DNA from: an uncultured Clostridium sp.
GTDB taxonomy: Bacteria > Bacillota > Clostridia > TANB77 > CAG-508
DNA: 64,000 nt
Direction: 5' to 3'
Assembly (NCBI GenBank): GCA_947384775.1
Contig: CANDIF010000001.1
Coordinates: forward strand, 121,976-185,975
The first letter of the stretch is position 1. Each line of letters starts with the position of its first letter. Below, in pieces: positions 8,749-47,508 of the stretch. The translations under genes were made by a program, and so were the position numbers. The notes under the pieces were generated by a model that worked only from the letters and a program-made list of their open reading frames with translations, searched no databases and was not told the origin of the DNA.

Positions 8749-11343
8749 TTATTTTACAATCAATCCCTCATTTTCCAAATCTATTGTAACGTTTTGTTTT
8801 GGAATAATTGCTTGTTCTATAATTTTACGAGCAATTAATGTTTCTAATTCTTTTTGAACAAATCTTTTTAATGGTCTTGCTCCATATATTGCATCATAAC
8901 CATTCTCAATTAAATATTCTTTTGCCTTATCTGTTAATGTAATTAATATTTCTTGCTCCTCTAATCTCCTATTTAAATCAGCTATTAACAATTCTAAAAT
9001 GCTTCCTATTTCATTTTGCGTTAATGGTTTATAGAATATTATTTCGTCTAATCTGTTTAAAAATTCTGGTCTAAAACTTTGTTTTAAAAGTTTGTTTACT
9101 TTATCTTTTGCTTCATCTGATATTTCTCCATTTTTATTAATTCCATCTAAAATATATTCTGATCCTAAATTTGATGTTAAGATTATTATTGTATTTTTAA
9201 AATCTACTGTTCTTCCTTGTGAATCTGTTATTCTTCCGTCATCTAATACTTGTAATAATACATTGAATACATCTGGATGAGCTTTTTCTATTTCGTCAAA
9301 TAATATTACTGAATATGGTTTTCTTCTAACAGCTTCTGTTAATTGTCCTCCTTCTTCATATCCAACATATCCTGGAGGCGCACCAATTAATCTTGATACA
9401 GAGAATTTCTCCATATATTCAGACATATCTATTCTTACTATATTATGTTCATCATCAAATAAGCTTTCTGCTAATGCTTTTGCAAGTTCCGTTTTACCAA
9501 CACCTGTTGGGCCTAAGAACATAAATGAACCAATAGGTCTACGACTATCATGTATTCCTGCCCTTGAACGAATTATTGCATCTGTTACTTTTCCTACAGC
9601 TTCATTTTGACCAATTACTCTTTGGTGTAAAACACTTCCTAAGTTTAATATCTTCTCTCTTTCGCTTTCCATTAATTTTGTTACTGGAATACCTGTCCAT
9701 TTTGCAATAATTTTAGTTATTTCTTCATCTGTTACTTTAGTTCTAAGTAAGCTAGATTCTTTAGATTTTTGAGCTATTTCTTCTTCTACTTTTAGTTGTT
9801 TTTGCAACTCTGGAAGCTTACCATATTTTAGTTCTGCTGCTTTGTTTAATTCATAATTTCTTTCAGCACTTTCTATTTGGCTATTTACTCTTTCTATATC
9901 TTCACGTAGTTTTTGAACTTTAGATATAGCATCTTTTTCATTATCCCATTTAGCTTTCATTTCATTAAACGTACTTTGCATTTCTGCAATTTCTTTTTGA
10001 ATTTCTTCTAATCTTTTTTTAGATTGGTCATCCTTTTCTTTTTTCAATGCTGTTTCTTCTATTTGGTGTTGCATTATTTTACGTGAAATTTCATCTAATT
10101 CTATTGGCATAGATTCCATTTCTGTTTTTATCATACTGCAAGCTTCATCAATAAGGTCTATTGCTTTATCTGGCAAAAATCTATCTGAAATATATCTATG
10201 AGATAAAGTTGCAGCTGTAATAATTGCATTATCACTTATTTCAACTCCGTGATATACCTCATATCTTTCTTTCAATCCTCTTAAAATAGAAATTGTATCT
10301 TCAACTGTTGGTTCATCTACTAAAACATGTTGAAAACGTCTTTCTAATGCTGGGTCTTTTTCTATATATTGTCTATATTCATTTAAAGTTGTAGCACCAA
10401 TACAATGAAGTTCTCCTCGAGCAAGCATTGGTTTTAAAAGATTACCTGCATCCATTGCACCATCAGTTTTTCCAGCACCAACTATTGTGTGAAGTTCGTC
10501 TATAAATAGAATTATTTTTCCTTCACTTTTTTTAATTTCTTGAAGAACTGCTTTCAATCTTTCTTCAAATTCACCTCTATATTTAGCGCCAGCAACCAAT
10601 GCTCCCATATCAAGAGAGAAAATAGTACATTCTTTTAAACCTGCAGGAACATCTCCTCTTACAATTCTTAAAGCTAAACCTTCAGCAATAGCAGTTTTAC
10701 CAACACCTGGTTCACCTATTAAGCATGGATTATTTTTAGTTTTTCTTGAAAGTATTCTAATTACATTTCTTATTTCATTATCTCTTCCTATAACTGGATC
10801 TAATTTTTGTTTTCTAGCCATTTCTACTAAGTCTGTACCATATTTTGCTAAAACATCGTAAGTATCTTCTGGATTATCTGTATTCACTTGTCTATTCCCC
10901 CTTACTTCTGATAATACTTTTAAAAATTTATTTTTTGTAATATCAAATGTTTTAAATAAGTCTTTTAATTTTGAATTTGCTTTATCTATTAATCCTAACA
11001 TTATATGTTCTACTGAAATATATTTATCTTTCATATCTTTTGCAATATTTTCAGCAGTAACTAAAGCCTCATCTGTATCTTTTGAAATATATACATTATC
11101 TATAGGTCTAGAATTATTTGAATGCATTCTTGGTTTATTATCAATTTCTTTTTTTAAAGTATGTTCAAACTCCTCATTTACATTCATTTTCTTTAATAAA
11201 GATTTTATTAAACTATTATCCTGAATAATTAATGAATAAAGTAAATGTTCTTGTTCTATCTGACTATTTTCATTTGATATAGCTAAACTTTGAGCTCCTT
11301 GTATAGCTTCTATTGATTTTTGAGTAAACTTTTGACTATTCAT
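8749..11343 (-). CDS. clpB: ATP-dependent chaperone ClpB
   Basis: 864 aa; Clp N domain, two AAA+ modules (GEPGVGKT, GPTGVGKT) and a long middle coiled coil. Confidence 0.95.
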   Translation of the reverse strand: MNSQKFTQKSIEAIQGAQSLAISNENSQIEQEHLLYSLIIQDNSLIKSLLKKMNVNEEFEHTLKKEIDNKPRMHSNNSRPIDNVYISKDTDEALVTAENIAKDMKDKYISVEHIMLGLIDKANSKLKDLFKTFDITKNKFLKVLSEVRGNRQVNTDNPEDTYDVLAKYGTDLVEMARKQKLDPVIGRDNEIRNVIRILSRKTKNNPCLIGEPGVGKTAIAEGLALRIVRGDVPAGLKECTIFSLDMGALVAGAKYRGEFEERLKAVLQEIKKSEGKIILFIDELHTIVGAGKTDGAMDAGNLLKPMLARGELHCIGATTLNEYRQYIEKDPALERRFQHVLVDEPTVEDTISILRGLKERYEVYHGVEISDNAIITAATLSHRYISDRFLPDKAIDLIDEACSMIKTEMESMPIELDEISRKIMQHQIEETALKKEKDDQSKKRLEEIQKEIAEMQSTFNEMKAKWDNEKDAISKVQKLREDIERVNSQIESAERNYELNKAAELKYGKLPELQKQLKVEEEIAQKSKESSLLRTKVTDEEITKIIAKWTGIPVTKLMESEREKILNLGSVLHQRVIGQNEAVGKVTDAIIRSRAGIHDSRRPIGSFMFLGPTGVGKTELAKALAESLFDDEHNIVRIDMSEYMEKFSVSRLIGAPPGYVGYEEGGQLTEAVRRKPYSVILFDEIEKAHPDVFNVLLQVLDDGRITDSQGRTVDFKNTIIILTSNLGSEYILDGINKNGEISDEAKDKVNKLLKQSFRPEFLNRLDEIIFYKPLTQNEIGSILELLIADLNRRLEEQEILITLTDKAKEYLIENGYDAIYGARPLKRFVQKELETLIARKIIEQAIIPKQNVTIDLENEGLIVK

Positions 11344-11412
11344 ATATATTCCTCCTTTAAAATATCTTATAGTGTTAGATATTTATTTTTTAAAAATGCA
11401 GTTTATCTGCAT

Positions 11413-11832
11413 TTATATATTAAGGCTCTTTTTAATTAGTCTAATTAGTTCTTTGGCATCTTCTTCTCCTAAATTTGATAGTATATCTTCTGCTAATGTA
11501 ATTCCACTTTGGTAGTTTTCTAATATATATTCTTTACCAGATTCTGTTATATATACAATAACTTTTCGCTTATCTATATCATGATTTCTTCTTTGAATAT
11601 ATCTCTTTTTTTCTAAACTATTTAATGCACTTGCTACTCTGCCAGTTGTTACTTGCATATAGTTACATATATCTCCTGCTGTTGCTCCATCTTGTATTTT
11701 ATCTAGATAATACAAAATTGACATTTCTCCTGTAGCGAAGTTTCTAGAATGTTCTTGGAATGGATTTTTAGAAAATTGTGATAGTATATAGAATAATTCA
11801 TCTGCTAAAGAATCATATAACATGATATTCAC
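11413..11832 (-). CDS. MarR family transcriptional regulator
   Basis: 139 aa winged-HTH. Confidence 0.75.
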   Translation of the reverse strand: MNIMLYDSLADELFYILSQFSKNPFQEHSRNFATGEMSILYYLDKIQDGATAGDICNYMQVTTGRVASALNSLEKKRYIQRRNHDIDKRKVIVYITESGKEYILENYQSGITLAEDILSNLGEEDAKELIRLIKKSLNI

Positions 11833-11952
11833 CTCTTTTTATCTTACACTATAAGATATTATATCACCTTTTATTTTTTTGTCAATGTATTTTTATGAAA
11901 TTTTTAATAAAGAAATCACTAAGTAAGTTTTTTACTTAGTGATTTTCATTAT

Positions 11953-14283
11953 TTATTCTTCTTTTATAATTCTAGTTGAACATATAGTTATTGTTAAAGA
12001 TATTGCGAACATTACAACTATAAATATTCCAATACTACCAAATGGAATTAATAATTTATTTAAAACTAATACTTGTTCCATTCCTTTTATAATTTTATAT
12101 ATTATTGGTATTGATAATACTGTTGATATAATTAGTGCTTTTACAAACATATATATACATTCATATATCAAAATCTTTTTAATATTTACTTTTGTTGCTC
12201 CCATACGATATAAAATATTAAAATCTTCTTTTCTCTCAATTAGACTAGCATTTATTATATTTATAGTGCTTACTATTCCTATTGTTATTATTGCTATCAT
12301 CATTATTTTTAAAATTAGCTCTACTATATTTATGTACAGGATTTTTTCTTGGTTATCTAGTGTATAGTACTCCCTAGATACACCCAAATTTTTTTCTTCG
12401 ATAGTTTTTTCCATATAATTTTTAAATTCAACAATATCATCACACTTTATTTTTACTTTTAAATTATCTCTCGTATCCCAAAAAGCTCTTGTATTGCCAT
12501 CATTCATATAACTGTGTAATTTTCCATATGTATTTTCTATATAATTATCCATTTTATTATATGTATCCAAATTCATAAATAATGTTGGATAACAGTAAAA
12601 ATCTGTTTTCTCTAGCTCTTTATAACCTTCTATAACTTCATCTGTTAGTATTATTTTTCTATCTAAAATTTGAGATTCGATAATTTCGTATTCCCATATA
12701 TTATTTTGGTATGTTCTATCTATAAGATTCAATTTTAAATTACTATCTTTTTTAAATATAGGTGTGTATGAGTAGGTTGGTTGCGAACTATTTACCTCAA
12801 AGTTGTGTATTATTGTATTATTATAGACTATAAAGTCTCCGTAATTTCCTTTTACTTTGTTTATATATTTATTGTAATTCATATCATTTAAAGCTATAAC
12901 TCTCATTTGAATACTTTTATTTTTGTTTTCGAATTCAAAGCTAAAGCTGTCATCTACAAAGGCATCAGTTGGAATTACTAGGAAGTTATTTTGCCAAACA
13001 TCTCTATATTCAAAATATTCTAATTTTTTATTGTGTTTTTTTTCATATTCTTTTAATATACTAACATAGTCAAAACATCCATTTAATTTTGCTACTTCAT
13101 AAGTATCTTCTGAATAAATAGTTAATTCTGCATCAACGTCGTATTCTGTTACTAAACTAGCAGTTTCTTTTTCATATTCAATGTATGTACTAATTGAAAC
13201 AAACGAAGTTATAGTTACTACCAACAAAAATATTATAAGTCTATACTTGCTTTTATTTCTTCTTATGTTTTTTATTGCTACTTTTCCTTCGGTTGGAAAT
13301 ATTTTTTCTAGTATTGTTTTTCTCTTTTTATTTTTAATTTCTTTATTGTTTCTTATTCCTTGTATAACAGATGTTGAACTTGCTTTTAAACTTGGTATCA
13401 ACACTGAGAAATATATATTTATAACTATAATTATTAACGCTAAAATTATATATTTTATATCAAATACTAAATTAAAGTAATAACCTGCTCTATTTAAAAT
13501 ATTGTTAATATTGCTTAAAGCCATATTTGAAAGTAATACAGAAAGCAATCCTCCCACAATTATTCCTATAATTCCCATTATAATTGCTTCTTTAAATATC
13601 ATTTTTAGAATTTGTCCTTCTGTTCCGCCAACACTATTTAATATTGCATATTCTTTCTTCCTCTCATTAATTGTTATTAAAAAGGCATTGTGCAAAATTA
13701 TAATAAATAAAGCTGAAAAGACAAGCAGTAATATAATTATCATAAGTGTTATTATTGGTGAATAATTTACTCTCATTAGGCATGTTGGAATGCCATTTTT
13801 TTCTGTTATAGATAAATCAATATAACCATGAACTGTAAGAAATGTTTTATTAAATTTGCAAGTAGTATTAATGTTCTTAAATTCTAATTCACTTAAATTT
13901 AATTCTCCAAGTATATTATTTGTATATTCACACACCCTCTTTGTGTCTTTATACTTTAAATATACTGTAGTATTATCAATAGCTTCATAAGAGCTATCGA
14001 CTTTTTCTAAATTTTCGTTTTTGCTTTTTTGTATATAAATTTTATCAATATATGTTTTGTTTCTTATTCTATTAAAACGTTCTTTTGATAAGTCTTTTAA
14101 AATAATGTGATAATCATTATACTCAGTATCAAAATTTTCAGATACTCCATTCCTTATACTTGATATTAGTAATATTGTAGTTAATATAAGTGTTGTACAT
14201 AATATTAATGATATTGTAGTATATAGAGTTCTTTTTTTATTTTTCCTCATGTTATTTAAAGCTAATTTGGTTTCTATTTTCAT
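11953..14283 (-). CDS. ABC transporter permease, FtsX/MacB-like with two FtsX domains
   Basis: 776 aa; N-terminal TM, large extracytoplasmic domains and two 4-TM FtsX modules. No ATPase gene adjacent. Confidence 0.75.
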   Translation of the reverse strand: MKIETKLALNNMRKNKKRTLYTTISLILCTTLILTTILLISSIRNGVSENFDTEYNDYHIILKDLSKERFNRIRNKTYIDKIYIQKSKNENLEKVDSSYEAIDNTTVYLKYKDTKRVCEYTNNILGELNLSELEFKNINTTCKFNKTFLTVHGYIDLSITEKNGIPTCLMRVNYSPIITLMIIILLLVFSALFIIILHNAFLITINERKKEYAILNSVGGTEGQILKMIFKEAIIMGIIGIIVGGLLSVLLSNMALSNINNILNRAGYYFNLVFDIKYIILALIIIVINIYFSVLIPSLKASSTSVIQGIRNNKEIKNKKRKTILEKIFPTEGKVAIKNIRRNKSKYRLIIFLLVVTITSFVSISTYIEYEKETASLVTEYDVDAELTIYSEDTYEVAKLNGCFDYVSILKEYEKKHNKKLEYFEYRDVWQNNFLVIPTDAFVDDSFSFEFENKNKSIQMRVIALNDMNYNKYINKVKGNYGDFIVYNNTIIHNFEVNSSQPTYSYTPIFKKDSNLKLNLIDRTYQNNIWEYEIIESQILDRKIILTDEVIEGYKELEKTDFYCYPTLFMNLDTYNKMDNYIENTYGKLHSYMNDGNTRAFWDTRDNLKVKIKCDDIVEFKNYMEKTIEEKNLGVSREYYTLDNQEKILYINIVELILKIMMIAIITIGIVSTINIINASLIERKEDFNILYRMGATKVNIKKILIYECIYMFVKALIISTVLSIPIIYKIIKGMEQVLVLNKLLIPFGSIGIFIVVMFAISLTITICSTRIIKEE

Positions 14284-14356
14284 ATTAACTTTTCTCCTTA
14301 TTTTATTATAAGTTGTATTTTAACATATAGTTAAATAATTATCAAATTGTAAATTT

Positions 14357-14390
14357 ATAAAACGGAGAGCCCGCTGTCGCGAAGCTCTCC
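14357..14390 (-). terminator. GC-rich hairpin terminator downstream of the 166-aa secreted-protein gene
   Basis: ggagagcccgctgtcgcgaagctctcc followed on the minus strand by GTTTTATAAATTT. Confidence 0.5.
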
Positions 14391-14476
14391 TAAATAAGAT
14401 ACGAGTGTGCAGAAAAGTTATTACTTACTTATTACAATTTTAAGTGTACCAATTATACAGAGAATCCAATAAAAGT

Positions 14477-14977
14477 TTAGCTTAAATCTGTATAGATGGC
14501 CTCCATTTCCACCGAATATTTCCCAGATTTTGCCGTATAAATTACCCACACCTCATAGTTTCCTGGAGTAAAATCGCTATAATACCAATCACCATGCCAT
14601 TGTCCATCTGCTATCGCTGTAAAACTCCTCTTGATTCCAGTTGTAGTGTTGTACAGCTCAAAAACTACCGCTTTGTCTTTTGTTCCAGACAGCAAATTAC
14701 CAGTAAGTTTGTGCCTAATGGCATTCTTTTGCCCAGAAATATTAATTCCACCTATGAGCATGTGGGGTGAATCTGTAAAGCTCCTACTAGTCGAAAAGTA
14801 GTTTTCCCTACTTTTTAACACCCCTTCATTCATAGAAATCGGAGTAGTAATTTCAACTACTTCAGTTGTCTGGTTTGCTGCAGGAACTTGCTCTGCCGCC
14901 ATAGCGGAAGTGCTGATACTCATCAGCATTACAACCGCCATAATGGCAGCTGCAATCGATTTAAGATGTTTACGCAT
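14477..14977 (-). CDS. Secreted protein of unknown function; higher-GC islet gene
   Basis: 166 aa with a cleavable-looking signal peptide (AMAAEQ), good RBS ggagga, ~40% GC versus ~28% background. Confidence 0.55.
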   Translation of the reverse strand: MRKHLKSIAAAIMAVVMLMSISTSAMAAEQVPAANQTTEVVEITTPISMNEGVLKSRENYFSTSRSFTDSPHMLIGGINISGQKNAIRHKLTGNLLSGTKDKAVVFELYNTTTGIKRSFTAIADGQWHGDWYYSDFTPGNYEVWVIYTAKSGKYSVEMEAIYTDLS

Positions 14978-15197
14978 TGTGTTGTCCTCCTAAATAAATA
15001 GATTGCACACTCGTACTTATTTTCAATAATATTGCACCCGCATTACATATATATATTACTACAAAGTTTTATCAAAAAAATGAAAATTTGTATCTAATTT
15101 TTTAAGAAAAAACTGAAAAAAAGTGAAAAAAAGTGAAAAAAATCATGAGAAATATAATTGTTTTTTTCTCATGATTTTTAATCAGTTCCATTTTTTA

Positions 15198-15983
15198 TTA
15201 ATATTCTACTATCTCTATAGATTGTACTTCTAATTCATTTAAAGGTTTATTTATATCCTTATATTGTACACCTACGGTTATTCCATTTTCTAATTGTCCT
15301 AATATTTTAACATCTTCTGTTAAGTTAACCTTTATTGCAAATGGAAAGTCATAATCATTATCTGAAATATTGTATTTCAAATAAAACTCATTAGAATTAT
15401 CATAGTATTCTTCAACTGTTATTATAGCTTCCCTCTCTTTATTTAATGCTTCCCTTTTCATATTCTCATAATCTTTTGCTTTTAAAACAATAAATGTGTT
15501 GACATTTATATCAGAACTATTTTCATTTTTTAGAGCATTTTTTGAAAGAATCAAAATATCTCCTTCTTCAATATAATCTGCATTATATTCAACATGTGTA
15601 ATATAATCTATGCATTTTTGTTTAGTATTTGCTATATGTGCTTCTGTATATTCTTCCATTTCGAATCCAAATTCTCCAAAGTGCTGTCCATTAAACATAA
15701 ATATTCTACCATCATGATTAAATTCTACTATACCTTGTATACGTTCTGACTTTGGTATTTGTGGTAACTCACCTTTTTTATCTTCAAAAGATACAACATT
15801 TCCATCTTTATCAAACATGTTATTTTCATATATTGGGTGTTTGATAGAATTATTGTTTATTTGATTTTCCTGTTTTTCTTCCTCTTTTTCATCTTTTTTG
15901 TTACTTTTATTTGCTAAAAATAGTATGCCAGCTACTATAAGCACTAACAAAAGGCAAAAACATATTATTTTAATCTTATTCAT
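15198..15983 (-). CDS. Membrane-anchored hypothetical protein
   Basis: 261 aa; single N-terminal TM, charged linker. Confidence 0.5.
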   Translation of the reverse strand: MNKIKIICFCLLLVLIVAGILFLANKSNKKDEKEEEKQENQINNNSIKHPIYENNMFDKDGNVVSFEDKKGELPQIPKSERIQGIVEFNHDGRIFMFNGQHFGEFGFEMEEYTEAHIANTKQKCIDYITHVEYNADYIEEGDILILSKNALKNENSSDINVNTFIVLKAKDYENMKREALNKEREAIITVEEYYDNSNEFYLKYNISDNDYDFPFAIKVNLTEDVKILGQLENGITVGVQYKDINKPLNELEVQSIEIVEY

Positions 15984-25507: not shown

Positions 25508-25939
25508 CTATTTAAGTTTATCAAATAGATTGTGGCACACCGTAAATGCTGCCACAAGAGAAAGAAGTGCATTTGCCACCCAAAATTGCCAAATTTGTAA
25601 TGCTGTGGGTAGCACAAACAGCATTAGTGAAAAAATGATAGTGAACGGAACGATAAAGCTGCACGCTTTTTCTGTGATTTTTTTCCACTTTTTCTGCCAG
25701 GTCACGCCAAAGAGCCCAAAATATATCCAGGCAGTCAGTGGCGCAATTGCCAGTTGAATGGTCCACATAGGAACAAACGCGTTGAAGTCGAATGGTAGTT
25801 CATGGCTTTCCAGCCAGACAAAGGTCACCAGTGTCAGCTGGAACAGGTATGCTGTTGCAATACCCGCTAAGATTGCCCATAGTTCATTGCCTTTCCGTTT
25901 CATGTGCTTTTCATCCTTTCTTGTAGCCAAGATTAACAT
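25508..25939 (-). CDS. Small 4-TM membrane protein, higher-GC islet gene. Likely real start is Met13 (25903), which has an RBS
   Basis: 143 aa (131 from the second Met), ~45% GC. Confidence 0.5.
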   Translation of the reverse strand: MLILATRKDEKHMKRKGNELWAILAGIATAYLFQLTLVTFVWLESHELPFDFNAFVPMWTIQLAIAPLTAWIYFGLFGVTWQKKWKKITEKACSFIVPFTIIFSLMLFVLPTALQIWQFWVANALLSLVAAFTVCHNLFDKLK

Positions 25940-26051
25940 AGGGCGAATTCCCTAATGACTGTGATTGTATCATATTTATGTTGATTTGTAAATTAGTATT
26001 TTTTAGATGTCTCTTTGAATGGAATTATTCGACACTAGTTTTATTTTTTTA

Positions 26052-26116
26052 CTGACATTCTGCCCCGTCCCTTCTGACACCTTCTGATGTCACTTGGGAC
26101 GGGGTCATTTGACATT
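26052..26116. repeat. REP-like repeat cluster A (right-end copy abutting the RAYT stop codon)
   Basis: tgacattctgccccgtccc + 2 x ccttctga iteron + inverted unit tgtcacttgggacggggtcatttgacatt. GC-rich 9-bp palindrome arms CCCCGTCCC/GGGACGGGG. Confidence 0.75.
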
Positions 26117-26789
26117 AATTATTATACAGCTTTCTTATTTTTTCTCTATTCATTTGTAATAATTGAGAAATTTTCCTTAGTGATAATCCATTATCTCTTT
26201 TTAATATCAACAGTAATTCTTTTAATTTTACTTTACTCTTTTTTAATTCGTTTATTTCTAAATTATTTTCTATCAAAAACCTTGCTATTAACTCTTGACA
26301 AATATTTTCATTGTCAACATCTAAAAATATATAACCGTCTTCTAGAACTTTATTTTCATCTTTGCAATCTGAATACGGATATTCTTTTGCTTGATTGCAT
26401 ATTCCTGCTTTTACAGGATTATTATGAATATAATTAATGCAATTGCATAATTATTCTTCACTATATATGCCTTCTGATTTATACCTATCTCTAAATACAT
26501 ATCCTACTCTTTTATGCTTATTATTATAGTATTGAGCATATTGAGTGTTAATTTTGTGCATATATTTACTAAGATTTTCTATGTTATCAGTTTGTAACAA
26601 CATGTGTGTGTGATTATTCATAATACAGTATGCTAATATATCTACATTTTCTTTCTTCGCTACTCTTTTCATCAATTCTATGTAATATTCTATATCTTCT
26701 TTTTTATCAAATATGTAACTCTTATTTATTCCTTGAGTTATAATATGAAAATATGATGTCTGTATATAACTTCTTGGAAATCTTGGCAT
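26115..26789 (-). pseudogene. REP-associated tyrosine transposase (IS200/IS605 Y1 family, RAYT-like) with C-terminal DnaA-domain-IV-like HTH; interrupted by an in-frame TAA at 26451-26453
   Basis: N-terminal 112 aa: PRFPRSYIQTSYFHI, HuH motif NHTHML, catalytic Tyr in VFRDRYKSE. In the same frame after the TAA the translation continues ...INYIHNNPVKAGICNQAKEYPYSDC... (conserved IS200 TnpA C-terminus) plus an HTH (LSLRKISQLLQMNREKIRK), ending at 26115. Confidence 0.7.
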
Positions 26790-26886
26790 TTCAGACTCAA
26801 CTCCTCTATCATCAAATTTTTTGTATTTATTCTACATTATTTTTCACAATAAATTTGTCGAAATTTGTCTTTAATCCGTTTATTTT

Positions 26887-27012
26887 TTTATGTCATTCTG
26901 CCCCGTCCCTTCTGACACCTTCTGACATTTTTTTATGTCATTCTGCCCCGTCCCTTCTGACACCTTCTGATGCCTTCTGACCCCCTTTTGACCTTTTGAC
27001 ACTTTTGACATC
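26887..27012. repeat. REP-like repeat cluster B (two tandem direct units upstream of the RAYT gene)
   Basis: 2 x tttatgtcattctgccccgtcccttctgacaccttctga, then decaying iterons ccttctga/ccccttttga/ccttttgac/acttttgaca. Confidence 0.75.
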
Positions 27013-27520
27013 ATTTAATCAAGTCTTCATTAATACACTCTAATATCCTTTCATATATACTATCAAAATCAATATTCATTAGTCTTTCATTTAACTTTAG
27101 ATACAATTGATTTTTTTCTTTTATGTGCATATTCTTTCTGTTATATACTCCTTGTAATTGTTCTATAACATAATTTAAATTGCGATTACCAATTATGTCA
27201 TTATATTTTTTTACTATATTTATGTTTTTAATTATATTTTCTTCAAGATTTTTAAATAGTTTTATATATATTTCTTCTTTTTCTTTAATGGAATAATTAT
27301 AATATTGCCTTATCAAAATATCTTCAATATTATTATTTTTATAAAATTTCACATGTATATAAATATTATAAAAACTATATATCAGATTTTCCCATTTTCT
27401 AAGTAAATTTACTCCACTTACATGTTCTTTGCTTGTTACCGTATTAACAATTTCATCTTTTATGCTTATTAATTTTCCCCAACTGTCATATGTATATGAT
27501 GTCACTTGGGACGGGGTCAT
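27011..27520 (-). CDS. Orphan RHS-derived fragment: N-terminus homologous to the RHS core region (SYTYDSWGKLISIKDE), remainder unrelated with no DPxGL
   Basis: 169 aa. Codons 1-7 (MTPSQVT) are encoded by the REP inverted unit. Residues 8-23 are ~90% nt-identical to 28861-28896 in the main RHS gene. Confidence 0.45.
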   Translation of the reverse strand: MTPSQVTSYTYDSWGKLISIKDEIVNTVTSKEHVSGVNLLRKWENLIYSFYNIYIHVKFYKNNNIEDILIRQYYNYSIKEKEEIYIKLFKNLEENIIKNINIVKKYNDIIGNRNLNYVIEQLQGVYNRKNMHIKEKNQLYLKLNERLMNIDFDSIYERILECINEDLIK

Positions 27521-27647
27521 TTGACATTAAATTCATTTTTCTCTATGTCATTCTGCCCCGTCCCTACTGACAAATTCATTTTTCTCTATGTCATTATGCC
27601 CCGTCCCTTCTGACACCTTCTGACACCTTCTGACACCTTTTGACATC
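27497..27647. repeat. REP-like repeat cluster C (one inverted unit + two direct units + four 10-bp iterons)
   Basis: tgtcacttgggacggggtcatttgacatta; 2 x aattcatttttctctatgtcatt[c/a]tgccccgtccc; ccttctgaca x3 + ccttttgacatc. Confidence 0.75.
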
Positions 27648-28038
27648 AATAGATAATATATTTGATTTTTTCACATATAATATATGTTATTTCATTATCT
27701 ATATTAGTTTCATTCCATTCCATGCTGTCTGCCCAAAAAATTAAATTATTATTCATATACATTTTTGCCCCATCTATATTATTAAAATATTTACTTTTAT
27801 CGTATATATGTATATTCATTTGTTTTATTCTTTCAAAATGTATTTCAATGGTACCTCCTAATTGACTTTTTAAAATCATCTTAATTTCACTTTCTTCGTC
27901 TTGTCTCATATATTTTCTTTCATCAACATACATACCTGTTTTACAAAAGAATTCTATTACGCAACTATCATGAAAATTATAAAATTTCTTCATTATTTCA
28001 TCAATATCATTTTGCGAAGTTACATTTTTCCAATCCAT
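27646..28038 (-). CDS. Putative cognate immunity protein for the RHS C-terminal toxin
   Basis: 130 aa, soluble, immediately 3' (68-nt gap) of the toxin-encoding end of the RHS gene, no recognisable family. Call is positional. Confidence 0.45.
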   Translation of the reverse strand: MDWKNVTSQNDIDEIMKKFYNFHDSCVIEFFCKTGMYVDERKYMRQDEESEIKMILKSQLGGTIEIHFERIKQMNIHIYDKSKYFNNIDGAKMYMNNNLIFWADSMEWNETNIDNEITYIICEKIKYIIY

Positions 28039-28106
28039 ATTTCTAAATTTTATATAATGAAATTATATTTCACTATATTCTCCTTTCTTTTATATACTTT
28101 TTTTAT

Positions 28107-31100
28107 TTATGGTGTTGCAGCATTAGCTGGAATAGTCCACCATAAAGCTGGAAATAGTGACGGTATCATTCTTATTCCTCTATATAAAACATATCCACCC
28201 ACACCTATTCCAATTCCTTTTCCTAAATTTCTAAAATTATATGCAGGTCCTCTTTTGCACTTGTCTCCATCCCATTCCCAATCATGGTTATGTGGAAATT
28301 TATGAGTTCCATCATCAGTATGGTTATAATCAGTATCTCGTGTTGCTTTTCCATCAGGTCCATAATATCTTCTCTTTTTTATCGTTCCATCTGGATTTAA
28401 TAAATCTTCTGTGGAATTAGGTTTTCCCTTTGTTGATAAGTCCTCAGCGAATCTAATGTTTTTTCTTGTATATGCACTATTATTAGAAATTGCAGATATT
28501 TTTATAGCATTTTTTGCCATATTTGTTGCAATTATAGGTGCTGATAATTTTTGGATTTCTTTACTTATTAAATTTTTAATATTTTTTATAATTGATAAAA
28601 TCGAAACACTTCCTAATGGATCATAATAATTTATAGGATTATTTGAACAGTATGCAAACAAGTTATGTCCTATTATTTCATTCCCACCATTAAACGTCCC
28701 ATCCGCATTCAAGAATCTTCCCCATTCTGGGTTATAGTATCTTGAATTTAGGTAATATAGTCCTGTTTCTGTATCGTATCTATAACTCCTATATCTGTAT
28801 GGGTTTGCTATTCCCACATGATTTGGGTCTGTTATCTCTTTTCCTTCTTCATCTTTTATGCTTACCATTTTTCCCCAGCTGTCATATGTATATGATACTA
28901 TGTGATTTTTATTATTGTCAAGTATTCCTATTATATCTCCTTGTAAATTTTTTAAATATAAATAAATAGCTCCATTATACCTTAGTCCCATAATGTCTCC
29001 ATTGTTGTCGTAGAAATAGTATATTACACTATTACTGTTATCTTTTTTCTCATATATTACTTTTGTTCCTTCTAAAAAGTATTCTGTTGTTACTCCATTT
29101 ACTGTTTTTTCTGTCCTTATTCCTTCATCATTATACTTATAACTTATGTTTAATCCTGTATTTTCATTTGTTATACTTTTTAATTCTCTTCCATTCTGCC
29201 AAGTGTATGTATTTCCATTATATGATAATGGATTTCCAATTGTATCATATGTTATTGTTTGTCCATTGTAACTTGTTAATTGATCTTTCCAATTTGTATT
29301 TCCATATGTATAATTTATCGTTTTTGTTGCTGTTCCTAATTCTCCTGTTGTATATGGATATTCTGTTTTATTTGTAATATTTCCTCCTAAATCATATTCA
29401 TATGTGATAGTTTTACTTAAAGTTTCATTATTTTCTCTTTTTAATTGGTTTAAGCTGTCATAATAATATGTTGCACTTTGTCTACCTCTTACATTCTTTA
29501 TATTACCTAATTCATCATAATTATATCCTATGAAAAATGAATCTCCCTCAATACTTGATACTCTTGATGTTGTTCTATTACTATCTACATTTTCATAGTC
29601 ATACCTTATAATATAAGATTTATTGGCTCCACTAATAAATTTTCTACTTAATCTCGATAAATTGTCATAATCAAATTCCATTGAAATACTATTCCCTGAA
29701 TTTGAGTCTCCAGAATATGTTGAAACAGATGTAATTCTGTTTTGATTATCATATCCATAATTTTCTCTACTTATATTGCCATTGAATACATATTCTGAAT
29801 AATTTAAATTGTTGTTTTTATCATATTTGTAAGCTCTCTTAAATCCATATAAAGCATTATAAACGTTTGTTATTCTTCCTGATAAATCATATGTATAGTA
29901 TTCCTTTATTCCTTCTGGTGTTTCTATGTATGCTAAATTTGATTGTGCATCGTACTTATATTTATATGTTCCTTGCTCTTTTGTTTGTGTTGTCATTATA
30001 TTAAATCTATCATATGTATATGATATCGTATCATCATTTCCATATATCACACTATTTAAATTTCCATAGTTTTCATCATAATTATTTGTTATCAATGTTT
30101 GATTAGCTATTTTTACTTGTTTTCTATTTCCATATTCATCATATGTAAAATAATAGTTAAATCTATTATGAGCTATTGTATTTATTCTATCATTTTCATA
30201 TGTATACCTATTTTGATATGTTTTGTTTCCTACTGTTTTGCTTACTATGCTTATTCTTCCTAATTCATCATATGTGTAATTTGTTTCTGTTCCTTTGGCA
30301 TCTGTTACTTTATCTAAATTTCCATTTGTTTGGTTGTATTCATATGTTGTTTCTTTTCCTGTTTCGTCTTTTATTTTTGTTAGATAATTTCCATTTTCTG
30401 TATATTCTGCATTTGTTTCTATATATTTACTATTTGTATTGTTTGTTATCTTTGAAGTTGTTGCTTGTCCGTATTGGTTATATGTAAAGTTATAATTTAC
30501 TTCGGTGCTACTTATCGCTTTGGTTAGTCTATGTTTATATGTTGTATCATATTGATATTCAAATGTTCCACCCCTTGGATTTGTGTATTTTATTAAATTA
30601 TCATTTCCATCGTACTGAAATGTATTGTTCTGCTTTGCCAAATCTTGTGTTTTTATAATATTTCCATTACTATCATATTGATAGCTTTGCCCAAAGTGGT
30701 CTTTATATAATGCTACATTTGTTATATATGCTACATTTAGATTTTCGTAAAAACAGAAATATACTTGTATCTTTCTATAGTCATGTTCAGCTATAAATTC
30801 ATTTTGTACAAACTGCCATTGATCACTTGGATTTACTCTTACTGTTCTCCATTGTTGTTCACCGTTGTTTCCTATTATGCATACTGTAAAATCTGTAACG
30901 GTAGTATTATTTTTATTTCTTACTCCTCCTGCATATATCCATGCAGATATGCTAAATACATCTCCTTGTTTTCCTCCTGTTATTACATCTTGACGTATAT
31001 ATTTTTTTACAGTAGCTTCTCCTTCTAATTTGTAAAAATTACTTCCAGTTCCTACTGGTAGTGCTACCCAGTCTATATTTGGATTTGTATTATATGTTAT

Positions 31101-34100
31101 CCAACTCTTTGGATTACTTCCAGTATAATCAAATGCTGAGTTTTCTACCATATTATATTGGTTTTCAATAAATCCTTCTTCTACTTGTATATCGTCATAA
31201 TATATTGTGCCTGTATTTCCGAAAAATCCAATTACAACAGTCAAACTACTTGTTGCATCTTCTGGATAATATAAACTTAATGAGTATTTGTTCCATTCTG
31301 AATTTTTTTCAATAATATCTTGCTCTTCCATAACTCTATTTCCTGAAGCATCTAGATAATACAATTGTATATATCCCTCTCCAAGACTAGTCTTTTCAAG
31401 TTTTAATTTAAGAGATAAAGTATATGTTTTTCCCTTTTCTGCATTACAGTAATGATACGCTGCTGGTTGAACACTTTCTGTAAAGATACTTGATATTTTC
31501 ATACTTCTACTTCCAGTATAGCTATCTTCTGTACTGTATTCTATTGAACCAGGATTATTCCCCCAATTTCTAAATTCCCATTCTCCATCATATTCAAAAC
31601 TTCCATTAAATACTAAATTATTTACTGATTTTGTTAATGATCCATCCAATGTTAATCTATTTTTAGCTCCGCCACTTTCTCCATAATTGTACACTTTTCC
31701 ATATGCTTGACTAAGGTCAATTCCATCTTTTCCGAAATCTGCTACACTTATTGCTTGTCCCCAATCATTAAATGTTACATTATTACTAAAACCTTTATTA
31801 TCTGTAAATGTTGTTAAGTTGTCGTTATATGCTATGGTTAATCTATTTCCTAATTCTAAATTACTTGCACGTTCTTCTATTGTTTTTACTCTGTTAGTTT
31901 TTTCTGGATAATATTCAAAATTCAAATGTTTCCCATCTATATTTAATAGCATAACTAATAAATTATTTTGGTATACTAGCATTGATTCTCTGTTATCTAA
32001 ATATTTAATTTCTCCTAATGTACCATCATTGTAGCATACAAATTGCATTGATTTTCCATCTGGACCTGTTAATTTGTTCAAATAGTTTCCCGCATATTCA
32101 AAGGTTATTTCTTGTCCTGCTCCATCTGTTACTTTAGATATAACAAAGTCATTTGCCTCTGTTTCTGAAAATGTTATTATTATTTTATTTCCATTGTTAT
32201 CTTCTATTTCTTTTAAGTGCCATAAATATCTTCCTGCAACCGTTCTTCTTTCGAACCTTATTACATTATCTCCTTTATCTTTCATGCTAAACACTGCTGT
32301 TGCTGCATCTAATGTTAATTCTAAATTTAATCCATCTTCGTCTTTATATATATTTCCTTCTTTGGTAAAATAATGTCTTGTTCCATCTTCATCTATATAT
32401 TCTGCATATTCTGTACCACCTATTGTTACCAATTCTATTGTTTGTGATAAATTAAGTCTCATTCCATTTCCATATCTGGAACCTATATCTTTATCGTTTG
32501 TATTATATACATGTGTTATTGTTACTGGAAACCTTTCTCCTGGTGTTGATATATCGTTATGTATCCATACTAAATTTCCATTATAGTCATTTGTATATAC
32601 TGTTCCTGCTCTTCCCAAATCTTGAGTATGGTAACTTAAATAATCTTCTAATCCTGTTTGATTTCTATATATAATTTGTACTACTGGTCTTCCTTCATAC
32701 CAAGTTACATTTGTATCTGATGAAATAAAATATGCATCATTTCCTGAAACATTATTTGCTTCTGAATGTTCTTTTATCATTACACCATAGTTATTTCCTG
32801 TTGTGTACCACTCTTTAGCTGCTGTTGTTATATTAAATGTATATTGTTTACATTGGTTGTTATAATCGAATTGATATAGAATAAAATCTTCTGCTCTTGA
32901 ATTGTAATTTGCATTTGTATTACTCCATGTTGCTGTATTTTCATTCCAATCTGCAGTTATTTTATGTGCATCTAATTGTATTTGTCTAGTATTAGGTGTC
33001 CATTCACTTGTTTTTGGATATGTAAATATATTTAAATATGCTCCTATTACTTGATCTCCAGCTTTGAGTTCTGGAAGATTAAATTTTACTAAACTTCTTG
33101 TTGGGACTCCACTATTGTTTCCTGCTCTTATTATGTGTGCATTTCCTTTTGGGTCACTTCCTTGGCTTGAATATATAAATGTATCCTTAATATCATCATA
33201 ATATCTTGATGTAATTATGCTTGGATCTATTGTTATTGGATATATTCTTTCTGCTGCTTCTAGCCATTTTTTATCTGGTATTAATGTTATTATGTATTTA
33301 TCTGCTTGCTTTTCTAATTTTATATCAATATCTGAACTAAACTCTAATTTGTTGTCATACATAAATGGTGCTTCTATTGTAAATTTTACATTTTCTTCTG
33401 TCTTATCGTATACTATTATGTCTTTTGTTTCTAATAGTTTCATTTCAAGTGTTCCAACATCATATACAAATTTCAATTCATTATTTATTGATTCTTTATT
33501 TTGTAATATAATGTTTTCTTTTACATGTTCTGGTTCTGCTGAATATTCTATGCTTATATTACTTAATATTTCATTATATTCTATAGATGTTGTTGGTATT
33601 TGTGTTTTTACTTCTTTTGCTCGTAAACCTTTAACTTCTCTTTTCTCTAAGTTTTTATTATTTACATTTACTTTTGAAGATTGCGAATTTACTAATCCCC
33701 ATTTTATTGTATATCCTTCACTTTCCATACTTCCTAATCTGTATCCATTTGTTTTATTAGTAAAATATATTTGTGCATTTCCTGTTTTATTTTTGTAAAT
33801 TTTTGTTTCCTTTTTCTGTTCTTCTATTATTGCTTTATTTAATTTTTCTTCTATTTGATTGTTTTGCATCATTTCTATTTTAGTATTTTCTTCTGTTATT
33901 TTTAGTTTTTCTTCTGTATCAATTACTTCCTCTAATGTATTGTCTACATCTAGGAATTTTCCATCTTTCTCATAATGTACATTACTTGGAAATACTGATG
34001 CCACTACACTTCCATCTGACCTTAGGAAATGTTTTTCTGTATATGTTCTTTCTTCTTCCAGTTCTCCGATTATAACTGGTTCTGCTTTTTCCTGTTCTTT

Positions 34101-34292
34101 TGCTTGCTTTTCTAAATGTTCATCTAAACTTTTATGCATGTCTACTTTTGCTTCCATTTTATTGATTACAGCGTTTATATTTACTGCAATTGCAATATTT
34201 GGCACAAATTGAAAGACCATCACAAACACAAGTATTGTTGCAATGATCTTTTTTAATTTCTTTGGGCTTAAATGTTTTTGCATATTCATCAC
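28107..34292 (-). CDS. RHS/YD-repeat polymorphic toxin (WapA-like wall-associated protein) with Sec signal peptide and variable C-terminal toxin domain
   Basis: 2061 aa. N-terminal signal/TM (IIATILVFVMVFQFV). Dozens of YD repeats (YxYDxxGRL/ YTYD...G.). RHS repeat-associated core ending in the hallmark ...NPINYYDPLG (DPxGL). Then a 167-aa CT. Confidence 0.85.
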   Translation of the reverse strand: MMNMQKHLSPKKLKKIIATILVFVMVFQFVPNIAIAVNINAVINKMEAKVDMHKSLDEHLEKQAKEQEKAEPVIIGELEEERTYTEKHFLRSDGSVVASVFPSNVHYEKDGKFLDVDNTLEEVIDTEEKLKITEENTKIEMMQNNQIEEKLNKAIIEEQKKETKIYKNKTGNAQIYFTNKTNGYRLGSMESEGYTIKWGLVNSQSSKVNVNNKNLEKREVKGLRAKEVKTQIPTTSIEYNEILSNISIEYSAEPEHVKENIILQNKESINNELKFVYDVGTLEMKLLETKDIIVYDKTEENVKFTIEAPFMYDNKLEFSSDIDIKLEKQADKYIITLIPDKKWLEAAERIYPITIDPSIITSRYYDDIKDTFIYSSQGSDPKGNAHIIRAGNNSGVPTRSLVKFNLPELKAGDQVIGAYLNIFTYPKTSEWTPNTRQIQLDAHKITADWNENTATWSNTNANYNSRAEDFILYQFDYNNQCKQYTFNITTAAKEWYTTGNNYGVMIKEHSEANNVSGNDAYFISSDTNVTWYEGRPVVQIIYRNQTGLEDYLSYHTQDLGRAGTVYTNDYNGNLVWIHNDISTPGERFPVTITHVYNTNDKDIGSRYGNGMRLNLSQTIELVTIGGTEYAEYIDEDGTRHYFTKEGNIYKDEDGLNLELTLDAATAVFSMKDKGDNVIRFERRTVAGRYLWHLKEIEDNNGNKIIITFSETEANDFVISKVTDGAGQEITFEYAGNYLNKLTGPDGKSMQFVCYNDGTLGEIKYLDNRESMLVYQNNLLVMLLNIDGKHLNFEYYPEKTNRVKTIEERASNLELGNRLTIAYNDNLTTFTDNKGFSNNVTFNDWGQAISVADFGKDGIDLSQAYGKVYNYGESGGAKNRLTLDGSLTKSVNNLVFNGSFEYDGEWEFRNWGNNPGSIEYSTEDSYTGSRSMKISSIFTESVQPAAYHYCNAEKGKTYTLSLKLKLEKTSLGEGYIQLYYLDASGNRVMEEQDIIEKNSEWNKYSLSLYYPEDATSSLTVVIGFFGNTGTIYYDDIQVEEGFIENQYNMVENSAFDYTGSNPKSWITYNTNPNIDWVALPVGTGSNFYKLEGEATVKKYIRQDVITGGKQGDVFSISAWIYAGGVRNKNNTTVTDFTVCIIGNNGEQQWRTVRVNPSDQWQFVQNEFIAEHDYRKIQVYFCFYENLNVAYITNVALYKDHFGQSYQYDSNGNIIKTQDLAKQNNTFQYDGNDNLIKYTNPRGGTFEYQYDTTYKHRLTKAISSTEVNYNFTYNQYGQATTSKITNNTNSKYIETNAEYTENGNYLTKIKDETGKETTYEYNQTNGNLDKVTDAKGTETNYTYDELGRISIVSKTVGNKTYQNRYTYENDRINTIAHNRFNYYFTYDEYGNRKQVKIANQTLITNNYDENYGNLNSVIYGNDDTISYTYDRFNIMTTQTKEQGTYKYKYDAQSNLAYIETPEGIKEYYTYDLSGRITNVYNALYGFKRAYKYDKNNNLNYSEYVFNGNISRENYGYDNQNRITSVSTYSGDSNSGNSISMEFDYDNLSRLSRKFISGANKSYIIRYDYENVDSNRTTSRVSSIEGDSFFIGYNYDELGNIKNVRGRQSATYYYDSLNQLKRENNETLSKTITYEYDLGGNITNKTEYPYTTGELGTATKTINYTYGNTNWKDQLTSYNGQTITYDTIGNPLSYNGNTYTWQNGRELKSITNENTGLNISYKYNDEGIRTEKTVNGVTTEYFLEGTKVIYEKKDNSNSVIYYFYDNNGDIMGLRYNGAIYLYLKNLQGDIIGILDNNKNHIVSYTYDSWGKMVSIKDEEGKEITDPNHVGIANPYRYRSYRYDTETGLYYLNSRYYNPEWGRFLNADGTFNGGNEIIGHNLFAYCSNNPINYYDPLGSVSILSIIKNIKNLISKEIQKLSAPIIATNMAKNAIKISAISNNSAYTRKNIRFAEDLSTKGKPNSTEDLLNPDGTIKKRRYYGPDGKATRDTDYNHTDDGTHKFPHNHDWEWDGDKCKRGPAYNFRNLGKGIGIGVGGYVLYRGIRMIPSLFPALWWTIPANAATP
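28110..28610 (-). other. C-terminal toxin (CT) domain of the RHS protein, after the DPLG motif; family unassigned
   Basis: 167 aa after YYDPLG. His/Asp-rich motif DYNHTDDGTHKFPHNHDWEWDGD and a C-terminal glycine-zipper LGKGIGIGVGGYVLYRG. GC ~36%, higher than the repeat body. Confidence 0.5.
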
Positions 34293-34361
34293 CCCTTTTC
34301 GAGATGATTATATATTATACTTTTTTATCTGTCAAATTTTTTTAAGCTTTTTTTAAGGTTT

Positions 34362-47142: not shown

Positions 47143-47478
47143 TTTAGAAGTATATCTATAAGCCGGGTTCTGTCTAGAGCAGTCATTTATCTAGTATATA
47201 TATTACTATATATCTCAAGCCACCAATTTAGAAGATGACGGGCAATCTTATCCTTCTTTTTAGGTGTTGCTCCGGATGGGGTTTACATTGACCTAACATG
47301 TCTCCATATTAGCGGTAAGCTCTTACCTCACCTTTTCACCATTGCTATAAAATAGCTGTTATTTTCTGTTGCACTTTCCTTAAGGTTTCCCTCACTGGAC
47401 GTTATCCAGCATCCTTGCCTTGTGGAGCCCGGACTTTCCTCATATAGACCCTTGCGAGTTTTATACGCGACTGCTTAA
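47139..47478 (-). ncRNA. rnpB: RNase P RNA (M1 RNA)
   Basis: Minus-strand read contains universal P4 strands GAGGAAAGTCCGGGCTCC (near 5') and ACAGAACCCGGCTTA (near 3'), also GGTGAGGTAAGAGCTTACC and GGGAAACCTTAAGGAAAGTGCAACAGAAAA. 5'/3' ends can pair as P1. Confidence 0.8.
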
Positions 47479-47508
47479 TATACTCCATTTATTATTGTAA
47501 ACATTATT

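Follow-up and report, generated by a model that had tools for sequence, protein, structure and literature searches.

A Sec-type RHS polymorphic-toxin locus of a Clostridia-like bacterium with a probable immunity gene and a REPIN-colonised orphan array

The window analysed here, i.e. the whole stretch of 64,000 nucleotides (nt) from contig CANDIF010000001.1 of an uncultured Clostridium sp. (GCA_947384775.1), carries a chromosomal, Sec-dependent RHS polymorphic-toxin locus of a low-GC, Clostridia-like bacterium, situated between dnaJ and a radical-SAM gene on one side and an HD-domain gene and rsmE on the other. The locus is of an ordinary, known kind, and its overall architecture is likely to comprise an RHS toxin, the cognate immunity gene, a chimeric scar and an orphan cassette array colonised by REPIN hairpins. 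The initial annotation had described a Sec-type RHS polymorphic toxin next to an immunity candidate as well as an orphan sharing the RHS junction; the former description holds for the window, and the lineage does keep orphan cassettes with a shared RHS junction.

The features of the locus, all on the reverse strand, are collected in Table 1. The start of the RHS gene is probably the ATG at 34283, since the promoter-like site (34335-34307) is followed by the ribosome-binding site (RBS) AAAGGGGTG, which precedes this codon. The signal-peptide-like N-terminus, the YD shell, the core ending in YYDPLG and the C-terminal domain (CT) of 167 amino acids (aa) are all found where the initial annotation had placed them. 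In Pfam and NCBIfam searches the precursor scores 4.2e-30 for RHS_repeat and 8e-16 for YD_repeat_2x, and its sequence matches in the PDB are all Rhs effectors, namely 8h8b, Tse5 8cp6 and RhsA 7q97 (1e-27; aa 1194-1891). The N-terminus resembles a Sec signal peptide, its cleavage being predicted by inspection and hydropathy, and the YYDPLG (aa 1889-1894), after the last residue of which (G1894) the CT begins, is presumed, from what is known of the family, to be the aspartyl autoproteolysis motif. In the mechanism proposed, the gene would be transcribed from its own promoter to give a precursor of 2058 aa that, as in other members of the family, would be exported by Sec; the YD-repeat cage would fold around the last 167 residues, which a cut between YYDPLG and the following S would set free.

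Table 1 Features of the RHS locus in the window and of the longer array in sister strains
Feature	Position (nt)	Strand	Remarks
Promoter-like site TTGACA-17-TATAAT	34307..34335	(-)	12/12 consensus match, just 5' of the RHS gene
RHS/YD-repeat polymorphic toxin precursor	28107..34292	(-)	2061 codons from GTG 34292; probable start ATG 34283, giving 2058 aa
Predicted Sec-type signal peptide	34185..34283	(-)	K-rich n-region KKLKK, 19-aa hydrophobic core, cut between AIA and V; inspection and hydropathy
DNRLRE domain	32709..33188	(-)	aa 369-528; NCBIfam NF033679, 4.5e-20
YD/RHS repeat shell	28887..30710	(-)	~aa 1195-1802; RHS_repeat, YD_repeat_2x and RHS_core matches; PDB Rhs alignments
Rhs-associated core	28611..28886	(-)	aa 1803-1894; TIGR03696, 7e-19; contains RFLNAD and YYDPLG
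CT module (a), all-beta His/Asp-motif domain	28227..28469	(-)	PNS..NPDG..RRYYGPDG..DxDYNH..PHNHDW; no Pfam family
CT module (b), Tox-WTIP tail	28110..28226	(-)	glycine-zipper helix GKGIGIGVGG and RGIRMIPSLFPALWWTIPANAATP; PF15654, 2.2e-10
130-aa acidic cytosolic protein, probable cognate immunity	27646..28038	(-)	uncurated family
REPIN	27497..27650	(-)	(TGTCAGAAGG)n, two left arms GGGACGGGGCA(G/T)AATGACAT, loop, right arm ATGTCAAATGACCCCGTCCCAAGTGAC
Chimeric 169-aa ORF ('orphan' of the initial annotation)	27011..27520	(-)	REPIN 27501-27520; orphan-1 junction 27452-27500; DUF4085 3' part 27011-27457
Two tandem REP left arms with TGTCA(A/G)AAGG decamers	26883..27005	(-)	5' of the RAYT gene
REP-associated tyrosine transposase (RAYT) pseudogene	26115..26789	(-)	nonsense codon 26451-26453 (codon 113), leaving 112 aa; Y1_Tnp 1.8e-13
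REP right arm overlapping the end of the RAYT frame, then degenerate left arm	26052..26115	(-)	
Longer array (sister strains), orphan 1			SYTYDSWGKLISIKDE, full Rhs core, CT with weak GIY-YIG match; 285-aa gene
Longer array, second Tox-WTIP			5'-truncated; 119- or 123-aa gene
Longer array, toxin remnant			340-aa DUF4085 gene
Longer array, Ntox44 orphan			with Rhs core; 164-aa gene

Among the closest known systems is the WapA/WapI pair of Bacillus subtilis, a Sec-exported Rhs toxin with a cytoplasmic immunity protein. Both systems exhibit a signal peptide, with no genes of a type VI or type VII secretion system near the present one, and both combine a YD shell, an Rhs core and a short polymorphic CT with a small cytosolic immunity gene directly 3'. 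The window protein, however, has no Pfam or NCBIfam match to a wall-binding domain at E <= 0.1, with DNRLRE found instead, its CT consists of a His-motif domain and Tox-WTIP rather than a tRNase, and the immunity candidate comes from an unrelated, uncurated family. The term 'WapA-like' is thus appropriate to the signal peptide, the RHS shell and the CT architecture, whereas neither the wall-binding repeats nor the tRNase domain that it would imply were detected.

Concerning the sister strains, their loci were retrieved through exact matches to the sequence of the 130-aa protein, 21 contigs being read and 10 returned. At least 21 contigs from metagenomes or metagenome-assembled genomes (MAGs) carry the RHS locus, the main CT and the 130-aa gene being the same in every case, in the order dnaK-dnaJ-radical SAM-RHS-130 aa-...-Y1 transposase-131-aa membrane protein-HD. 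Three of the 10 contigs have the short array of the window (one of them, L005, is identical to it over 11.6 kb at 100%), four (L001-L004) have a longer array and the remaining three end no more than ~240 nt past the 130-aa gene. The orphans of the sister strains retain 200-280 nt of RHS core with 84-90% identity and differ in their CTs—weak GIY-YIG, Ntox44 and truncated Tox-WTIP—so that a polymorphic CT on a conserved core is found in the lineage. The exchange of CT and immunity among related strains that the initial annotation anticipated is not seen at the main gene, since the main CT and its immunity gene are identical in type across all the strains sampled and the orphan array alone varies. 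This recalls the orphan arrays of enterobacteria (e.g. Salmonella), in which downstream cassettes likewise keep the 3' end of the rhs core together with their own immunity genes and the arrays vary between strains; here, in contrast, the organism is of the Gram-positive type with export by Sec, the array of the window is reduced to a chimeric scar, and the cassettes are separated by REPINs, with a RAYT gene at the end.

The CT itself, which had been described as matching nothing nameable, could be assigned in part. In a profile search its last 33 aa match the Pfam family Tox-WTIP with 41.0 bits against a gathering cutoff of 25 (profile positions 47-79 of 79), the motifs RxxR and Wx[ST]IP being present as RGIR and WWTIP. 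When the CT was used as query against 5.8 billion proteins, 19 relatives were found, and their alignment with it separates two modules. Module (a), with the family consensus LPxKGxPNS..NPDG..RRYYGPDGKAxxDxDYNH..G.H.FPHxHxW and pLDDT values of 82-95 in the AlphaFold2 model, terminates four proteins (P0010-P0013), some of them RHS, without any WTIP tail. Module (b), i.e. the glycine-zipper helix plus YRGIRMIPSLFPxLWWTIPANAxxP, also occurs on proteins whose upstream parts differ widely (P0015-P0019). A second hydrophobic segment comes after the glycine zipper GKGIGIGVGG; the Kyte-Doolittle value stays below 1.6 in every 19-residue segment of the CT, and the pLDDT of the tail is only 45-53. The CT would be composed of an amphipathic helix, an all-beta domain of ~80 aa with an Asp/His cluster (DxDYxH...PHxHxW) and a membrane hairpin formed by the glycine zipper and the WTIP segment. 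Tox-WTIP has been reported as a predicted pore-forming toxin from proteobacteria (T2SS/PVC), with no immunity protein listed (Zhang et al. 2012, PMC3482391). In comparison with that family (PF15654), the window protein has the same RxxR and Wx[ST]IP at the extreme C-terminus, with a score over the gathering threshold, but it is an RHS protein from a Clostridia-like bacterium in which the tail lies behind a separable His-motif domain and is paired with soluble immunity candidates.

The 130-aa protein is very likely the cognate immunity protein, which would bind the toxin; this assignment is based on its position, its co-variation with the toxin and an immunity-like fold. As the initial annotation had stated, it is a small soluble protein: its gene begins 68 nt 3' of the RHS gene on the same strand, its pI is 5.05 and it contains no hydrophobic or transmembrane (TM) segment. 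The profile searches proposed there for both proteins succeeded for the tail of the CT, whereas the 130-aa protein has no match in Pfam or NCBIfam, nor in the PDB by sequence, and no Pfam match was found for any of the 64 sequences comprising it and 63 relatives. An exhaustive HMMER search places it in a family of 148 representative clusters. Its fold is common to PIM7 (PDB 8owu), although the identity is 18% and neither the single sequence nor a profile matches the PDB by sequence; the search with the CT model did not bring up PT7, the cognate toxin of PIM7, so that in comparison with the PT7-PIM7 pair (bioRxiv 10.1101/2021.10.19.465003) there is a common fold without sequence homology or a PT7-type toxin. 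With regard to co-variation, an orphan cassette of the contig L034 encodes a CT 75% identical to that of the window followed by a member of the 130-aa family, called there as 133 aa, and in L011-L013 a relative with 50% identity comes after a WTIP tail remnant. In a survey of 80 metagenome WTIP loci the family is found directly 3' of the tail in 6/80, the upstream toxin being of the His-motif type wherever readable. It should be noted that the spacer between the two genes (28039-28106) holds a sole Shine-Dalgarno-like sequence, AAAGGAG, which belongs to a 7-codon mini-ORF starting with GTG; the immunity ATG has no obvious RBS, and translational coupling or re-initiation is therefore possible.

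The same survey bears on the question of which of the two modules kills and which is neutralised. The tail was readable in 68 of the loci, across which it is near-invariant, and a downstream ORF was found for 64; these downstream ORFs form at least 27 BLAST clusters, 62/64 of them without a TM segment. The His-motif toxins precede three downstream families, i.e. the 130-aa family, DUF2691 and a family of ~125 aa, among which hhalign revealed no relation, and the ~125-aa family stands 3' of both the tailed P0004 and the tail-less P0012. Because the tail is near-invariant while the downstream families vary with the upstream domain, the immunity appears to track the latter and not the tail; and as tail-less toxins exist, P0012 (the one looked up) having an immunity-type gene behind it, module (a) is favoured as the toxic part. 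We therefore tentatively regard the His-motif domain as the toxic module that specifies the immunity and would act in the cytoplasm of the target cell, possibly as a metal-dependent nuclease, and the WTIP hairpin as a shared accessory that would insert into the target membrane.

Several observations weigh against this picture and call for a comparison with other explanations. The signal peptide and the autoproteolysis are both read from the sequence; very similar His-motif CTs are paired with either the 130-aa family or DUF2691; and distant relatives of the 130-aa protein (25-39% identity) occur in loci without a toxin gene called nearby. Together with the uniform C-terminus of the main protein in all strains sampled, the last point would suit a non-toxic surface or wall protein next to an unrelated small ORF, but this is very improbable in view of the complete Rhs core with a Pfam toxin tail, the reappearance of this CT type in a movable orphan cassette, where a separate copy of the small gene accompanies it, the junction that the alternative CT/immunity cassettes have in common, and the immunity-like fold of the small protein. 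A more serious alternative, which we consider possible though rather unlikely, is that the Tox-WTIP hairpin does the killing as a glycine-zipper peptide that depolarises or perforates the membrane, with the His-motif domain serving as a grip for a soluble immunity protein shielding the cytoplasm of producer and sibling cells. The glycine zipper followed by a second hydrophobic segment fits such a role, as does the extreme conservation of the tail; many WTIP proteins, moreover, carry just a Pro-rich linker upstream of it, which suggests that the tail may be the sole toxic part. The Rhs effector Tse5, found among the PDB sequence matches of the shell, is an Rhs-encapsulated membrane toxin with a pore-forming CT. 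The prediction by Zhang et al. (2012, PMC3482391) points in the same direction, and the Staphylococcus aureus glycine-zipper toxin EsxX, countered by the soluble cytoplasmic immunity ExiAB (PMC12744356), demonstrates that a soluble immunity protein does not exclude a membrane toxin. With EsxX, its partners ExiAB/ExiCD and Tse5 the present system has in common a glycine-zipper C-terminal segment on a polymorphic toxin, but here no membrane immunity partner was found and a separate His-motif domain is present, the likeness being one of architecture. What speaks against the hairpin as the killing module, besides the four tail-less His-motif toxins and the cognate-type gene kept downstream of P0012, is that an invariant toxin should have a conserved immunity and not the many unrelated downstream families observed, that a Sec-exported precursor should need no cytoplasmic protection before export, and that no consistent polytopic membrane partner was found (polytopic ORFs in 8/35 loci), the local protein with four TM segments having no homologue there.

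The second part of the locus concerns the junction repeat SYTYDSWGK and the ORF downstream of the immunity gene. At an offset of 1396 nt, 28/31 nt are identical between 27470-27500 and 28866-28896, confirming the ~90% identity reported in the initial annotation, whose second range was ~5 nt off. Over longer spans the identity is 44/48 (27453-27500 versus 28849-28896) and 62/81 (27420-27500), falling to 8/30 and 26/53 on either side; because of this collapse and because intact orphan genes of the sister strains begin with the same junction, the repeat is not a chance similarity. The 169-aa ORF is nevertheless not a toxin tip, as it had been taken to be. It consists of 7 REPIN codons (ATG included; the repeat covering the start is of family D3), 16 codons of orphan 1, which stop short of the Rhs core and the cleavage motif, and the last 146 codons of a DUF4085 gene, which match the 3' part of the 340-aa gene of the sister strains with 100% identity. 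According to BLASTN, the window and L002/L003 remain colinear as far as 27452 (L 10597), and the alignment resumes at 27457 (L 13991), i.e. the window has a deletion of 3,394 bp with the 6-nt GATGAA at the joint (27452-27457). By this comparison of sequences, the ORF is a three-piece chimera, a microhomology deletion scar in which the orphan-1 RHS junction was joined in frame to the 3' part of the DUF4085 immunity gene. The 3.39-kb deletion would have removed most of the orphan cassette array, leaving the fused ORF as debris. The 5' edge of the junction homology is fixed by the REPIN insertion and not by a functional boundary. DUF4085 stands in L034 directly 3' of a complete toxin ending in ...PGHYPHYHINYRHGAPHIWF, for which reason it is the immunity candidate of that toxin. 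The idea that REPINs supply in-frame start codons as a function was set aside, because two of the three frames contain an ATG and in-frame starts would thus arise by chance.

The REPIN of the window is made up of TGTCAGAAGG decamers, GGGACGGGGCAGAATGACAT, a 17-nt loop and ATGTCAAATGACCCCGTCCCAAGTGAC, with a z-score of -5.1 for the single-stranded DNA hairpin. The RAYT gene lies between inverted REP arms at the end of the array. Its intact 224-aa version in sister strains reaches 90.3 bits against the cutoff of 80 for the NCBIfam family REP_Tyr_transpos (NF047646), whereas the copy of the window has 47.6 bits; the window shares the pseudogene state with L003 and with the short-array contigs L005-L007 and L031. 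Within the window the REP/REPIN copies are confined to 26040-27650, none being found in its remaining part or in ~10 kb of flank on each side in the sister contigs. In the latter (L001-L004, ~10430-15550) a REPIN stands ahead of every cassette, in a single orientation throughout, and the cassettes of L034 are also headed by one. The right end of the REPIN adjoins at least 8 different positions in RHS-core or toxin sequence, and one Ntox44 remnant has two breakpoints at the same REPIN end (L001 versus L004), a pattern which is what end-anchored adjacent deletions would give. As these fixed right ends abut nested 5'-truncations of toxin genes, the REPIN/RAYT pair is probably the agent of the array decay; it is most likely a lineage-specific selfish coloniser that would erode the toxin genes, the immunity genes being retained by selection. 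In L001-L004 (~13047-13100), a piece of ~50 nt that matches the last part of the main RHS gene (LFPALWWTIPANAATP and the stop) lies between two REPINs, which implies that the main CT was once copied into the array.

Compared with the REP/REPIN-RAYT systems already described, the Y1 HUH transposase scoring over the curated cutoff in sister strains, the inverted REP flanks and the non-autonomous hairpin doublets are alike; here, however, the copies are grouped in a single toxin array instead of being dispersed (as judged from the 64-kb window and the sister contigs), the host is Clostridia-like and the right ends adjoin truncated toxin genes. No Rfam family matches the REPIN. A scan of metagenome contigs for the exact 27-mer returned nothing, which is no proof of absence, since L004, a contig from a JGI sample, holds five exact copies. 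A related REP occurs twice in L025 (6880-7141), a MAG of an uncultured Clostridium sp., with the same GGGACGGGGCAGAATGACAT core behind GTGGCAATG repeats; no similarity of L025 to the RHS locus of the window was found, so that other Clostridium genomes also contain this REP family.

Two functional interpretations of these structures have to be set against decay. That the 169-aa ORF is a working orphan tip and SYTYDSWGK a live point of tip swapping in this strain, as supposed initially, could be argued from its 44/48 nt identity to the main gene and from the orphans of such design in sister strains. For Rhs of Salmonella, recombination between orphan and main gene is reportedly documented (PMC3967940). 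The proposal is, however, highly unlikely, since the ORF has neither an Rhs core nor a DPxG motif, most of its length corresponds to the last 146 aa of a DUF4085 immunity protein, its start codon lies inside a REPIN and no immunity gene follows it; the homology amounts to just 48 imperfect nt, the junction is unusable for swapping in this strain because a crossover there would delete the Rhs core that closes the cage, and the synteny with sister strains contradicts it. It is also doubtful, though less so, that the REPIN/RAYT pair is a functional device of cassette exchange, with hairpins where toxin/immunity cassettes would be cut out, inserted and rearranged. The arrangement would then be an engine of cassette turnover, an HUH-transposase analogue of the integron with a hairpin at every cassette boundary (likewise improbable in our estimation), where single-strand cleavage and joining by RAYT at the right end of the REPIN would lead to the gain and loss of cassettes and to toxin-disarming 5'-truncations, the immunity genes being spared. 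The constant position and orientation of the REPINs before the cassettes, in L034 too, the RAYT gene with inverted REPs on either side at the array end, the REP left arms that delimit the segment in which the Ntox44 cassette is either present or missing, and the restriction of the element to the array within the sequence covered are all compatible with such a device. On the other hand, no REPINs were found in the orphan arrays of other taxa, the RAYT gene is inactivated in the window and the contigs listed above, the junctions resemble nested deletions into toxin genes instead of precise cassette ends, the rearrangement of the window itself took place by microhomology and not at a REPIN, and no link between RAYT and Rhs arrays was found in the literature.

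Of the several implications, one concerns annotation: a junction repeat followed by a downstream ORF does not amount to a spare toxin tip, the sister strains revealing here a deletion chimera. Tox-WTIP, too, appears in a new light, as a tail that, across the 68 readable metagenome loci, is near-invariant at the C-terminus of many unrelated small domains, each with a soluble downstream protein, and whether it is a toxin or a delivery/anchor module becomes a directly testable question. Two uncurated families—the His-motif toxin domain and the PIM7-like immunity family—are revealed, and the confinement of the REPIN/RAYT pair to the toxin array offers a tractable case of selfish hairpins remodelling islands of defence and offence.

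Finally, a few observations were made around the locus. A conserved protein of 131 aa with ~4 TM segments (25508-25903, reverse strand), encoded in a stretch of higher GC content (0.35 versus ~0.25), marks the end of the array in every strain. No family matches it, and a role as ExiCD-like membrane immunity, considered for it, is unsupported, given the lack of homologues near other WTIP loci and the low number of polytopic ORFs there. In L011 (GCA_047017005.1, 400-12300), another Clostridia MAG, six ORFs (five of 277 aa and one of 278 aa) lie among WTIP tail remnants, in an array that also holds a 131-aa homologue of the immunity protein. The RHS gene of L006/L028, one contig from sample ERZ12802914, is broken into ORFs of 976 and 1074 aa, which may reflect pseudogenisation or an assembly error. 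The window also contains, at 47143-47486 on the reverse strand, a bacterial RNase P RNA of class A (283 bits), which fits a host of the Clostridia type over one of the Bacillus type.

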